Assembly (NCBI GenBank): GCA_964016885.1 | Contig: OZ024754.1 | Location: 40,920,001-40,984,000 of the forward strand | Origin: Eledone cirrhosa | Lineage: Eukaryota | DNA length: 64,000 nucleotides | Direction of reading: 5' to 3' | Shown here: in pieces, positions 4,264-43,548 of the stretch | Layout of the letters: every line of letters starts with the position of its first letter | Numbering within the stretch: position 1 is the stretch's first letter | Program-made: the position numbers and the translations under genes | The notes under the pieces: generated by a model | Seen by the model: the letters and a program-made list of their open reading frames with translations, nothing else | What the model was told of the DNA's origin: nothing | The model's database searches: none

Positions 4264-7200
4264 TCAAATGTTTTGACTTTTTTGATTTTCTCCAAACGAT
4301 CGAAGATAAGCAACGGTAGAATTCCATCCTTGCTGTTCCAGGGAAGAGGGGGAAGGTGGAAAAAAGAAAAAGTGATATTTAGTAAATTAAGAAAAAGATA
4401 ATAGATAAAGCAATAGATCAACGTTAAAATGTGAAAGTAAAATCTCACCCGAATCAGGTAGATTTGATCAGCCTCCTCCAGGTTCAAGTCATTGCAGTTA
4501 ATATGGCCAGTGTAAATAGCTATTGTTCGATCAACATCACTCCTCTAATAATTAGAAAGAAACGTTAGTTAATTTCTGAGATCATGTCAACATTTTAACT
4601 TCTGGTCTGGGATCCAGAGATAGGAACATATTTGGACGAAATACAGAGAGATATGAAACATGCTCACCGTGAAAGAATTGCTTTGTCGGTTTACAATGTC
4701 TGCTACGATGCCAAAATACGTATGCAAGTTCTGTACATCTGACCTAAACGTGAAACATTTCTGGTAGTAAGTCACATATTTTCTTTCGATATAGCACAGC
4801 ATGTGGTTATATCTGAGCTGAAATTATAAAGAGTAAATAGAGTCGTTATACTAACTACCAGAATCTAATACTTCTTACTAAAAGGTTTGGCTCTACTTAC
4901 CTCACCATTCAGAGCTAAAGGTTCTATGATTTGGTAGAGGGTTTCCCGATTAACTTCCGTGCAACCAAATAAAAGTTGTATCTCTCTTATCTCTAAGGTG
5001 CATCCCTATTGAAATGATAAATTGATACGTACTCAGTAATGGTTGACATTTAAATATCTGCTGCAAACTGAAAAGAGAACATCTAACATTTTATTTGGAG
5101 AATCCGTTAAAAGATCGCCAATAAAATATAGTTTATAGAAGATCAAATGGTCTAAAAATTCTTAGTTTTCTATTCTGTTCCATTTCGGCTATTGAAAATC
5201 TCAAATGTTTGGAAATTATGTACATTATCTCCAAGATATTAAATACTCCACCCCGTATTGACCGACCACCCCAAGAGCTATGTCACATTTCTCAGACTTC
5301 TGACTAAAATTAGCTTCAGTTATTCCTATTCCGGTCTAAGAGAATCTTTTAAAACAATTTCTAATTGACTGGTTCCCCTCAAATAAAAATGAAAGGAGAG
5401 CTAAGAATTAAAGTTCTGTTCTAGCATTAAGTTGTCTATTTTCAGACTTGTTACTGGTACACGAAATAAATTATTACTTGTGAAACAATTTAGACATAAT
5501 TACATACATTGATTAAGGCTTGTATAAATTCCTCCATTGGTAGAATGTCGCCGTCTCTTATTTCTTCTAGTAGCTACAAATATAATACAGACGATATATT
5601 CGGATCAGGTTTTATTACATATTTAGAATCTAACAAAGATTTAAGTTATAAATCAAGAATTTTTTTAAATTTTAGAAAAAAATAGACTCGGTTGTCTGAA
5701 GATACGTAACTAATTAGTCTGTATAAGAAATATTTAAAATAAACCTATTAGAAATGTCTATAGGGAAGGATGTGTGGTAGAGTTCTCTCTGCAATATTCT
5801 AGTTCCGAGTTTGTTTCCCTTCTGTATCACCTTATACAAGTCAGTCTCAGATTGACACTTTTTGCTGATGCATACGGGAGATGAAAGATGTAATCACGAG
5901 AAAAACCCCACCGAAAATCTGAACGATGTCTTGCTATATTTTACTGGGTATTTTGACACACGACGTCGGAAATGCAGAGAACCAGTGATTAAGTTGTTGG
6001 AACGTTATAACTTACGACGTTCAATTTGGGATTAAAAAAAAACCCCAAAAAACAAAAAAAAAAAAAAAAAAAAAACCCAATCCCGAATTTAATATACATT
6101 ATTTAAAGCACAAGTAATGCACTAGGATAATTACTGGCCTTATACCAAAAGTAGAAATAATTGTTTAAAGTACTTACCTGTCCAAGTTTTAAACAAGCTG
6201 TACGGAATATAAAATGCCGCATTTTTGTGGTTTCTCTTTTCCTTTGCAGATGGAAGTATTTCCTAGTGGAATAATATCGAAATAATTTGAAGTAATATCG
6301 AAGTAACTGCAGTTAAGTGTGGGCTAAAATATCTAATATAGAACTAATGTTTAATGAAAGAACAGAATAAGGAAAATTATGAGAAAGGACAAGGAAGAAA
6401 ACTCAAATTTAGATTGATGAATTATCATTGTAATTCGATTTAATCTAATTATTAGATTGCAGAATTCGACAAAAAGATTCAACGTACTGTCCAAGTGTTG
6501 TCCGTGGAATGGGGTTTTGTGCTTCAATCTGTTGAATTCGGTTATTCAGTTCTTGGTAAAGCTCACTATCACAAGAGTCGTCATACTATCAAAAGAGAAT
6601 TCAATAGATCACAACAATCTTTAAGTACTACTGTTAACATCAACCAAACATTGACAACCATTAATCGACAGTCGACAGACTTTCGTCAAATCGGACCGAG
6701 GACACAATGTTTCCATTGGTCTTCCAGGTAGAAGGAGCAGCGTGAAATAAAGTGTCTTGCTCAAGGACAACACATCCCTCGAACTCACAACCTCACGATT
6801 CTCTAACCACTCAGCCACACGCCTCCACATTAATATAACCCTTAAGTCCCATTGCTAACATCAACCAAACATTGACAGCCATTAATATAAACATTTGAAC
6901 AGGCAACTTACCGTCAGAAATCCTAAAGTAGTTAGATTTGGGGTTCGATCTGGTCTTTGGAATCTCAGCATATTGACACTGGTACAATCGAAAGTTGGCT
7001 TCAACTTATCTAGAAAGGAGTCTTTAGGTTTCATGGATAACCACCAACCTAGAAACATAATACATACATATATATATATATATACATATACATACATATA
7101 TATACATATATACATATACATACATATATATACATATATATATATACATATATATACATATATATATATACATATATATACATATACATATACATATATA

Positions 7201-42300: not shown

Positions 42301-43548
42301 CTGTTAGCGGTGTTTGACAAGTCTTCATCCTTATGTGAGCAGTAAGGTCTCTGCGCTGCCATTTAGATTTTTTTTTTTTTTTTTTTTTTTTTTTTTTTTA
42401 AAGCTTGAATTAACTCATTTTCCTAGAAAATTACTTGACTTAGTTTTCATACTCTGATGTGAATTGCTCACTTTATCCTTTTTATTTTCAAAGAAAATAC
42501 AAAAGTTTCGCGCAAAAGATTGAGCATACCAGAATAATGTTTAGCGACTTTTCAGGCGTTATGGAGAAGCTCCGTGAGGTAAGTTAAATATTTTTCAAAA
42601 TTGAATAAACTTAATTCTCGAATAAACTTAATTCTAGTTTCATGTCGTGAAACTGTCTTTATACCAGATAAGATTTGAATTAATATTTTAAATAGGTCTT
42701 AGAGACGGCCAAGGAGGAAAAAAGTCTTGTGTTGGTTTCTCAACTGGCGAAGAGGTTAACCGATGATGTAAGTTTTTCATGTTTTAAATGTTGTCTAAAT
42801 CGAATTTATCGTTCCTTCGATCGGATTTCATTTGTAAAATGTTTAACCAAATTTAATTCTCGTTTGTAGAACTCCAATTTCTCAGAGATTGAACTTGAGG
42901 TATTATTCGGTATTGAAAAAAACAGTGAAGATTGTCTTGCTTTCTTCAAAAAACATTTCGATGGCAAGGACTTGGTAAGTTGGACAGTTTTTAGACACTT
43001 CTTTTTACTTTGGCTTATTTTTGTCAATGGAGTTTCTAACCTTCCTTTTATTTCAGCTTCCACCTACTGACATAATTAATCTGATTGAGAAAAGAACGTG
43101 TTACAATTTTTACAACTACAGCAAGCTTTCGCCAAGGGCTAACGTGACCGGGCTACCCACATTCTTGGGCACAATTAATAATTCTGTTCATGAAAACAAA
43201 TTGATTTCGGTAAGTACGGTTGACTTGTTTGAAATTATTCACTGTATGACATCTGTTACGTCTGGTAACCTTCCACGCGTTCTTTCTAACCTCCAGATAG
43301 ATGATTTGAGTCGTACTGTTGGTATCTACACCGGATATATTACCAATAACGATATTGATCTGCGGGAAGCTGATGGGCTGTACTTATATCGGGTAAGTGT
43401 TTGACTACTTTCAGAACCTCACCTATCGTTTTCTCTAATTTTATTACAACTTTGTTTCACTTAATAGAATGGCTGGAACTGTACTGTGGCGTTCTTGGAA
43501 CAGTTTAACCCCCGTAAAGATTACGAAACCAGCATTATCTGCCCTTGA
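39331..43548 (+). CDS. Patatin-like protein copy 4 (predicted pseudo-phospholipase), 13 exons, ~492 aa
   Basis: Exons: 39331-39480, 40006-40153, 40474-40610, 40736-40871, 41525-41623, 41703-41827, 42178-42269, 42494-42578, 42696-42767, 42870-42974, 43057-43209, 43297-43392, 43468-43548; GT-AG, open frame. Motifs [59 protein letters not shown] at 43711 and 43723. Confidence 0.92.
40201..40251 (-). ncRNA. Type I hammerhead ribozyme motif (family C)
   Basis: Minus strand: AGTTT-CTGAAGA-TCCC GTTAA GGGT-GAAA-GCA GCGATTCTT TGC-TT-AAACT; stems I, II and III all pair. Confidence 0.55.

Follow-up and report, generated by a model that had tools for sequence, protein, structure and literature searches.

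A cluster of serine-less patatin-fold genes in Eledone cirrhosa probably encodes conserved pseudo-phospholipases

We analysed a 64,000-nucleotide (nt) stretch of Eledone cirrhosa DNA (NCBI GenBank assembly GCA_964016885.1, contig OZ024754.1, positions 40,920,001 to 40,984,000 of the forward strand; hereafter "the window", numbered from its first letter), which carries a cluster of four patatin-fold genes, g1 to g4, between positions 4264 and 43548. All four genes have open reading frames and a glycine in place of the patatin catalytic serine, and their sequences indicate that they are very probably conserved, selected pseudoenzymes (pseudo-phospholipases). A reading of the window from its letters alone, the first-pass annotation, had described the cluster as four intact, diverged paralogues resembling the bacterial patatins ExoU and VipD.

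Results

Patatins depend on a Ser-Asp dyad. At the nucleophile elbow, all four window genes read G-[VA]-G-T-G-A, with glycine at the serine position, and GxSxG is found in none of the four. The glycine codons lie at 11018..11020 in g1 (minus strand) and, on the plus strand, at 13976..13978 in g2, 27700..27702 in g3 and 40057..40059 in g4; they are GGT or GGC, and three active-type paralogues in the same genome have an AGT serine codon. The glycine loop sits in the context FE[NS]LVFEGCG-[VA]-[KR]-[IG] in all four genes (EGCGVKI in g1 and g2, EGCGARG in g3, EGCGAKG in g4), such that the oxyanion loop reads G-C-G-x-[KR], not G-G-G-x-[KR], and GGG.KG occurs in 0/4. Neither the FENLVFEGGG.KG nor the GxSxG of the first-pass annotation is therefore present in any of the genes, which have EGCG and G[V/A]GTG instead; its DGG motif, with the catalytic Asp, is present in all four. 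The description of the genes as intact holds for the reading frames but not for the catalytic sites, which have been lost (Ser to Gly, GGG to GCG). Since patatins need the Ser-Asp dyad and the serine is glycine here, hydrolysis by the standard route has been lost. The nucleophile elbow has a strained geometry, which the invariant glycine at this position probably reflects. Passages of a study of VipD give its dyad as Ser73/Asp288 and its oxyanion hole as GGGAK, and report that either S73A or D288A kills activity (PMC3521694).

Adenosine-to-inosine (A-to-I) RNA editing is common in coleoids (PMC7703385). We considered and rejected rescue of the serine by this route, because A-to-I editing cannot yield Ser from GGN codons, nor Gly from TGY codons. 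In the active paralogues on sequence C2 of the same genome (L012, L014 and L015), the catalytic serine is encoded by AGT in a C-A-G or T-A-G context; given this codon, A-to-I editing could inactivate these enzymes at the RNA level, mirroring the change that is fixed in the serine-less clade. Glycine at the serine position was seen in none of the eight active-type proteins from Logan (P0024, P0117 and P0143-P0148).

Splicing the window sequence by coordinate bore out the four 13-exon genes, equal exon sizes, open frames and sub-pairs of the first-pass annotation: 48 of 48 introns are GT-AG, every frame is open, and exons 2, 3, 4, 8, 10 and 12 measure 148, 137, 136, 85, 105 and 96 nt, in the same phases, in all four genes. 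g1 (4264..11829, minus strand; 497 amino acids (aa); motifs EGCGVKI / GAGTGA / DGG), modelled on GT-AG signals, open frame and codons, has exons at 11659-11829, 10924-11071, 10593-10729, 9689-9824, 8407-8502, 6912-7048, 6488-6585, 6178-6262, 5508-5573, 4901-5005, 4668-4817, 4449-4544 and 4264-4332. g2 (13292..22031, plus strand; 504 aa; EGCGVKI / GVGTGA / DGG) has exons at 13292-13495, 13925-14072, 14820-14956, 15807-15942, 18632-18727, 18888-19012, 19141-19238, 19630-19714, 20712-20777, 21289-21393, 21479-21628, 21752-21847 and 21963-22031. g3 (26857..32878, plus strand; 528 aa; EGCGARG / GVGTGA / DGG), the orthologue of O. bimaculoides LOC106880002 and O. sinensis LOC115217505, has exons at 26857-27024, 27649-27796, 28158-28294, 29415-29550, 30239-30337, 30426-30550, 30702-30805, 31458-31542, 31697-31768, 31874-31978, 32097-32249, 32506-32601 and 32720-32878. 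g4 (39331..43548, plus strand; 492 aa; EGCGAKG / GVGTGA / DGG), the orthologue of LOC106880001 and LOC115217280, has exons at 39331-39480, 40006-40153, 40474-40610, 40736-40871, 41525-41623, 41703-41827, 42178-42269, 42494-42578, 42696-42767, 42870-42974, 43057-43209, 43297-43392 and 43468-43548. The junctions of g3 and g4 are supported by colinear annotated proteins (61% identity over 491 aa and 64% over 482 aa, respectively), and those of g1 and g2 by splice signals, frame, exon size and phase. A search for sequencing runs covering 26800-32900 listed no RNA, an outcome that speaks neither for nor against transcription. An AATAAA lies 109-175 nt 3' of the stop codon in all four genes.

g1 and g2 are arranged head-to-head, with 73% identity, and g3 and g4 in tandem, with 54%; a gene of one pair is 35-38% identical to a gene of the other. 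The g1/g2 spacer measures 1.46 kb from start codon to start codon (11830..13291), and 11646-12271 is an inverted copy, 80% identical, of 12844-13508, which fits an inverted duplication that included the 5' region. No fifth copy was found within the window or within 20 kb on either side.

The cluster structure and the patatin fold are far beyond chance. Single window exons give weak matches to Pfam PF01734 (6 of 11, E-values 1e-4 to 0.19, under the cut-off), and for the orthologues P0006 and P0001 the scores are 77 and 75 bits, above the gathering cut-off of 27.7, with E-values of 1e-13 to 1e-21 for full-length orthologues. Matches to the Pfam families ThiS-like, MMM1, FecR_C, Lipase_chap, His_Phos_2 and Flavodoxin were below cut-off and were discarded. 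Against PDB sequences, a 78-row family profile matches VipD (6e-24), ExoU (2e-22) and CapE (6e-9), as well as PlpD, and it matches calmodulin over the insert described below; none of the vertebrate proteins PNPLA1-9 is matched among the 60 PDB sequences listed. The AlphaFold model of P0006, the g3 orthologue, has a predicted local distance difference test score (pLDDT) of 87.8. Foldseek searches with this model returned VipD first, and CapE and CapV were also matched; VIA-align gave Z-scores of 24.6 for CapE, 24.3 for VipD (root-mean-square deviation 2.7 Å, 249 aligned), 21.8 for CapV and 21.3 for iPLA2beta (6aun). In the model, a helical EF-like lobe (P0006 residues 313-410) is inserted between the last two core strands; its matches to EF-hand proteins have Z-scores of 6-7, such as often arise by chance. 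In the active O. vulgaris paralogue P0078, the structural elements follow the same order. A weak segment of a hidden Markov model match, read with the published description of VipD, suggests that the VipD counterpart of exon 12 is likely the beta10-alpha14 loop over the catalytic groove.

Profile, structure and Pfam searches thus uphold the patatin fold and the ExoU/VipD-like style that the first-pass annotation had proposed, with VipD and then ExoU as the best solved matches. VipD/ExoU-type patatins carry the CDD name Pat_ExoU_VipD_like. The cephalopod proteins share with VipD and ExoU the order of glycine loop, elbow, DGG, final strand, lid loop and helix. They differ in being encoded by intron-rich genes, in starting with Met-Gly (MG), in carrying the EF-hand lobe insert and in having no match to a Rab-binding or membrane-localisation domain; the window genes, in addition, are without the serine and the GGG loop, and identity is 22-24% over the aligned core. 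CapV, which the first-pass annotation had mentioned as a member of the superfamily, shares the fold, as does CapE, but there is no closer tie: the NCBIfam model CBASS_lipase gives 21-23 bits, against a cut-off of 200, in two of the four proteins scanned and no match in the other two, PADLOC phospholipase matches are weak, the sequence match is weaker than that to VipD, no sign of a cyclic-nucleotide site was seen, and the window genes lack the catalytic serine. Vertebrate PNPLA1-9 have the patatin core in common with the cephalopod proteins (iPLA2beta, above) but a different domain architecture.

To place the window genes, we built trees, without bacterial rows, from 79 hand-chosen rows that include all five serine-less genes of the E. 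cirrhosa genome, after removing the three motif blocks. In a quick tree (LG+G4, 79 rows), all 22 rows that read G-x-G-[TS]-[GS] fall together on one branch, with a support of 100 in the Shimodaira-Hasegawa-like approximate likelihood-ratio test (SH-aLRT), and 15 of these rows again form one branch, with SH-aLRT 100, in a 38-row tree under a mixture model. Glycine occupies the serine position in 22/22 rows of this clade, as against serine in 51/51 rows outside the serine-less groups. The clade has members in Octopus bimaculoides, O. sinensis, Argonauta and E. cirrhosa, with a sub-branch made up of Sepia pharaonis CAE1247306.1 and ENA and Logan proteins. Twelve further members of this Sepia cluster come from Logan contigs of 2.2-3.7 kb that each encode a whole protein, and which are for this reason likely to be spliced transcripts. 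g3 groups with LOC106880002/LOC115217505 and Argonauta, and g4 with LOC106880001/LOC115217280, such that the first-pass claim of a lineage-specific expansion does not hold for these genes. g1 and g2 form a separate long branch, and for these two no orthologue above ~39% identity was found among full-length matches, and a five-exon-2-piece profile returned only four known proteins, in what were limited searches. Given that octopod and cuttlefish members fall in one serine-less branch, the serine was likely lost before octopus and cuttlefish split. That split dates to ~270 million years ago.

Other features have changed together with the serine. A PROSITE-type EF-hand pattern is present in 0/22 serine-less clade rows, including the window genes, versus 38/51 serine-bearing rows, and Pfam EF-hands are found in 3/3 intact-motif proteins versus 0/7 serine-less ones. 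Within the clade, the catalytic Asp is kept in 14 of 22 rows and lost in 8, the second loop glycine is kept in 7 and lost in 15, and a cysteine is present in the glycine loop in 13 and absent from 9, the loop sequence being highly variable. Thr or Ser directly follows the lost serine in 22/22 rows, and F130, D273 and G305 are among the positions that are near-invariant in the clade and rare in actives. Six other serine-less rows (from the leech Helobdella, the limpets Patella and Lottia, and three unnamed sources) fall in two separate places in the tree, and none of the six has the EF-hand pattern; given these separate positions, coupled loss of the serine and the EF-hand likely arose at least three times. 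A C-terminal QGWNxTV motif is common to the serine-less clade and the cephalopod active genes, which the trees put in one unresolved node. Gly2 is present in all four window genes and Ser6 in three, the strict myristoylation pattern is found in one (g3), and the MG start is found in 17/22 clade rows and 40/51 serine-bearing rows. We ruled out a role as secreted venom, there being no hydrophobic signal peptide.

A search with P0006 returned 160 proteins at E <= 1e-10, and among the best 120 of these the named sources are cnidarians, molluscs, a bryozoan, echinoderms, hemichordates and amphioxus; another search extended the range to a sponge and a nemertean. The matches listed (the best 120 of 160) include no named vertebrate or arthropod, which does not in itself show absence from those groups. 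Most members have Patatin and EF-hand families and an MG start, and in a redundant set of 290 family proteins the serine position holds Ser in 236, Gly in 34 and Asn in 1, with the region missing in 19. These invertebrate EF-hand patatins (among them O. vulgaris/O. sinensis LOC115216174 and LOC115216501, oyster LOC105340042, and proteins of sponge, coral, urchin and amphioxus) are homologous to the window genes over their full length, at ~30-39% identity and with the same architecture; they differ in having kept GGGxKG, GxSxG, DGG and mostly the EF-hand loop. The close relatives are thus uncharacterised invertebrate proteins and not vertebrate PNPLAs, in agreement with the first-pass annotation. 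Our literature searches, whose coverage largely excluded supplements, subscription journals and most cephalopod expression tables, found no description of an EF-hand patatin family or of patatin-fold pseudoenzymes; family members had no match in three supplement files of PMC9712504, and passages of PMC10329180 deal with PNPLA8 only. The parent family, which ranges from sponge to amphioxus and consists of likely myristoylated patatins with an EF-hand insertion, is apparently undescribed.

Several records of the family are of interest in their own right. The O. vulgaris records P0005, P0011 and P0140 are named "NHL repeat-containing 2-like", which is likely a misnomer; P0011 has only Patatin above the Pfam cut-off. 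P0223 and P0242 (Logan/ENA) have an EF-hand patatin behind a Patched/sterol-sensing domain, and P0242 is serine-less; such fusions may be read as a further hint of lipid sensing in the family. P0214 and P0238 (JGI) are patatin-only, serine-less proteins whose source name is "arachidonate 5-lipoxygenase", which may echo the neighbourhood of patatin and lipoxygenase genes in oyster (see Discussion). A patatin plus EF-hand cluster of 106 members in the ESM Atlas, labelled 73% bacterial and with a whole-protein structural match (TM) of 0.71-0.72, may consist of real bacterial relatives or of mislabelled records; it is not taken as a sign of transfer.

Elsewhere in the E. cirrhosa genome (G000), a search found at least three intact-motif genes (GGG[NS]KG, GAS[AT]G, DGG) at C2:111.16-111.40 Mb. 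The serine-less set has a fifth member, g5, at C14:6.86 Mb, with 13 exons and an open frame of 508 aa; it groups with LOC115217281. A partial copy of g3 at C13:39,933,685-39,935,621 (L023) runs from promoter to exon 3 at 89% identity, and its exon 3 contains a stop. Neither another copy of the g1/g2 block nor one of a LOC115232612-type gene was detected in this genome, for which copy counts are lower bounds. One of the C2 active genes keeps the intron positions of the window genes, except that exons 4 and 5 are fused, and these shared introns indicate that the serine-less genes arose by duplication of a spliced animal gene and not by recent bacterial transfer.

The ratio of nonsynonymous to synonymous substitution rates (dN/dS; Nei-Gojobori, exons 2-12) is 0.53 for g1/g2 (bootstrap 0.40-0.67), 0.33 for g3/g5 (0.24-0.45), 0.25 for g4/g5 (0.15-0.33) and about 0.14 for g3/g4. 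These values (~0.14-0.53) indicate purifying selection, as the first-pass annotation had supposed in calling the genes kept under selection.

g1 and g2 are 67-86% identical across exons 1-8, and 96% identical in a 3' block of 1.8 kb that extends from the end of intron 8 to the 3' untranslated region (g1 copy, 4027..5804, minus strand; g2 copy, 20481..22268, plus strand), a juxtaposition that indicates recent gene conversion. Within the block, exons 9 and 10 and introns 10, 11 and 12 have no substitutions, and intron 9 has 12 in 502 positions. Exon 11 (g2, 21479..21628, plus strand; g1 counterpart 4668-4817) is an island of divergence: its 150 bases, of 1717 aligned, carry 18 of the 39 block substitutions (binomial p = 9e-10), and 12 of its 16 differing codons change the residue. 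We checked read depth over 18700-22700 in three DNA runs from one sample, possibly that of the assembly itself. Depth over the homogenised block is ~1.5-2.4 times that over g2-unique pieces, and the two exon-11 forms are each at about single-copy depth, which indicates that both forms are real and paralogue-specific. Exon 11 covers the helix leaving the EF lobe, the linker behind it and the helix that follows; it is also the exon in which mean identity in the serine-less clade drops furthest below that of the actives (23% versus 39%, compared with 46% versus 49% for the lid-loop exon 12 and 52% versus 46% for exon 2). In theory, selection on a site inside a converted tract should leave a peak of divergence there, and Teshima and Innan reportedly treat such conversion-resistant sites. 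The resistance of exon 11 to conversion points to a selected specificity region.

Intron 4 of g2 contains a 76-bp tandem repeat (16674-18597; ~25 copies, 93% match) that ends 35 nt before exon 5, and intron 4 of g3 contains, by eye, a pyrimidine-rich AG followed by a short exon-5-start-like frame with a stop (30077-30160, plus strand), perhaps a duplicate exon that has decayed. Further tandem repeats, of 61, 48 and 34 bp, lie at 62024-62759, 58385-58759 and 1-368, respectively, and the sequence from 44 to 64 kb is otherwise microsatellite-like and similar to short interspersed nuclear elements, with no gene recognised there. Probable neighbour genes are a BTB-like open frame, recognised by eye, ~16 kb before the window (L026, 3182-4030, plus strand) and an uninterrupted stretch of 917 codons, whose tail is repetitive, ~6-8 kb after it (L027, 5584-8334, minus strand).

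Discussion

We tentatively propose that the serine-less proteins are anchored to membranes, do not respond to calcium and act as partners or decoys of the active paralogues, a reading to which we give a little less than even weight. The parent protein would be an N-myristoylated phospholipase A with an EF-hand lobe between its last two core strands, and so would probably be gated by Ca2+. A duplicate in the ancestor of octopus and cuttlefish would have lost catalysis and Ca2+ binding but retained the fold, together with the Gly2 anchor and lid loop; its product would still reach membranes, would probably still seat a lipid without cutting it, and would modulate active enzymes as a heterodimer partner or substrate decoy, with exon 11 setting the specificity of each paralogue. 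There are parallels in other hydrolases. Neuroligins, as Ser-to-Gly pseudo-hydrolases, put a hydrolase fold without its nucleophile to use in regulation and binding. ABHD5, which passages of PMC12871566 describe as the co-activator of PNPLA2, is likewise a nucleophile-less hydrolase fold used in regulation; both differ from the proteins described here in having an alpha/beta-hydrolase fold rather than a patatin fold. The same passages state that patatins are switched by partners or dimerisation and that PNPLA9 activity requires dimerisation (PMC12871566), and it is this mode of control that makes pairing or competing with active paralogues the likeliest job of the serine-less proteins. A predicted complex of the active O. 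vulgaris protein P0078 with the serine-less P0005 scored 0.58, versus 0.00 for the best control, with contact agreement of at least 76% and partner pLDDT of at least 76, which lends weak support to such pairing.

A number of observations weigh against this proposal. Of 157 solved complexes, 116 pass the mark for complex scores, as do 2 of 215 mismatches; passing scores at or below 0.60 account for only 18 of the 157 solved complexes and for both mismatches, such that the predicted pair falls in the weak band; moreover, paralogue pairs may pass by their likeness to solved patatin dimers. Serine-less and active genes are on different chromosomes, the strict myristoylation pattern is confined to g3 among the window genes, tree branches are long, and dS is saturated between pairs. 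Five fast-diverged serine-less genes (35-73% identity) exceed what simple inhibition needs and fit new partners equally well, and the invariant Thr/Ser at +1, together with the Asp kept in the four window genes, leaves room for unusual chemistry.

An alternative that we consider somewhat unlikely is that these proteins work on their own, without acting on active paralogues, as lipid-binding sensors, carriers or membrane scaffolds with newly acquired partners. Conservation of the fold, exon 12 and exon 2 alongside a fast exon 11 would fit this, as would the clade-specific near-invariant positions F130, D273 and G305 and the recurrence of serine and EF-hand loss in leech-type and limpet branches; however, the complex signal, though weak, favours an active paralogue as the partner. 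We think it distinctly improbable that the proteins are haemocyte immune decoys or receptors, diversified by conflict with pathogens or by tuning of oxylipins. In favour, exon 11 has withstood homogenisation, and most of its differences change the residue; the M. gigas family members that we found share one 37.3-Mb sequence; and, in passages of PMC12064177, the tandem oyster "PNPLA domain-containing" genes G32289, G32294 and G32297, whose membership in the EF-hand patatin family is unverified, flank an allene oxide synthase-lipoxygenase and are markers of macrophage-like and granule haemocytes. Of the roles floated in the first-pass annotation, nothing found here points to a gland or gamete function, and these oyster genes are the single lead towards an immune-cell one. 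In E. cirrhosa, by contrast, lipoxygenase matches lie on C17 and C1762 (a lower bound) and HSP10 on C19, with none beside the family genes on C2 or C14, and overall dN/dS is below 1.

Cephalopods have recruited enzyme folds as crystallins. By analogy, catalytic decay with retention of the fold, coupled with tandem expansion, could reflect structural co-option of the window genes as abundant, stable, non-catalytic proteins; the retained Gly2 anchor suggests membrane targeting instead, and we judge co-option very unlikely. Slightly less likely again, in our estimation, is that the proteins are still enzymes with a shifted nucleophile, namely the Thr/Ser after the elbow or the loop cysteine, acting with the retained Asp. 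The +1 residue and the Asp of the window genes would allow this, but across the clade the Asp is lost from 8 of 22 rows, the cysteine is absent from 9 of 22 in a widely variable loop, and editing can restore neither serine from GGN codons nor glycine from TGY codons. Lastly, the 96%-identical block and the broken g3 copy on C13 might be taken to mean that these are decaying duplicates, or that g1 and g2 are two haplotypes separated by the assembly. This has been largely refuted, and we give it almost no credence: frames are open, dN/dS is below 1, other genera have orthologues, exons 1-8 are 14-33% different between g1 and g2, and the read depths fit two genes that share one homogenised block.

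The proposal that serine-less proteins act on active paralogues can be extended. In coleoids, ancient, expanded patatin pseudoenzymes would be paralogue-specific regulatory subunits of an undescribed class of phospholipases, VipD-like, myristoylated and gated by Ca2+, which likely supply oxylipin signalling in immune cells; the dead-enzyme design would have arisen independently in annelids and in limpets, and exon 11 would be a selected specificity switch. As a whole, this extended scheme is unlikely. Proteins now labelled "uncharacterized", "PNPLA domain-containing" or "NHL repeat-containing 2-like" receive a corrected annotation, and the conversion-resistant exon 11 marks where specificity may lie. 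A clade of patatin pseudoenzymes that has apparently been kept since before octopus and cuttlefish split, together with its active sisters, offers a paired test of how pseudoenzymes regulate, and the parent family, so far unstudied, becomes a candidate for lipid signalling triggered by Ca2+ in invertebrates.

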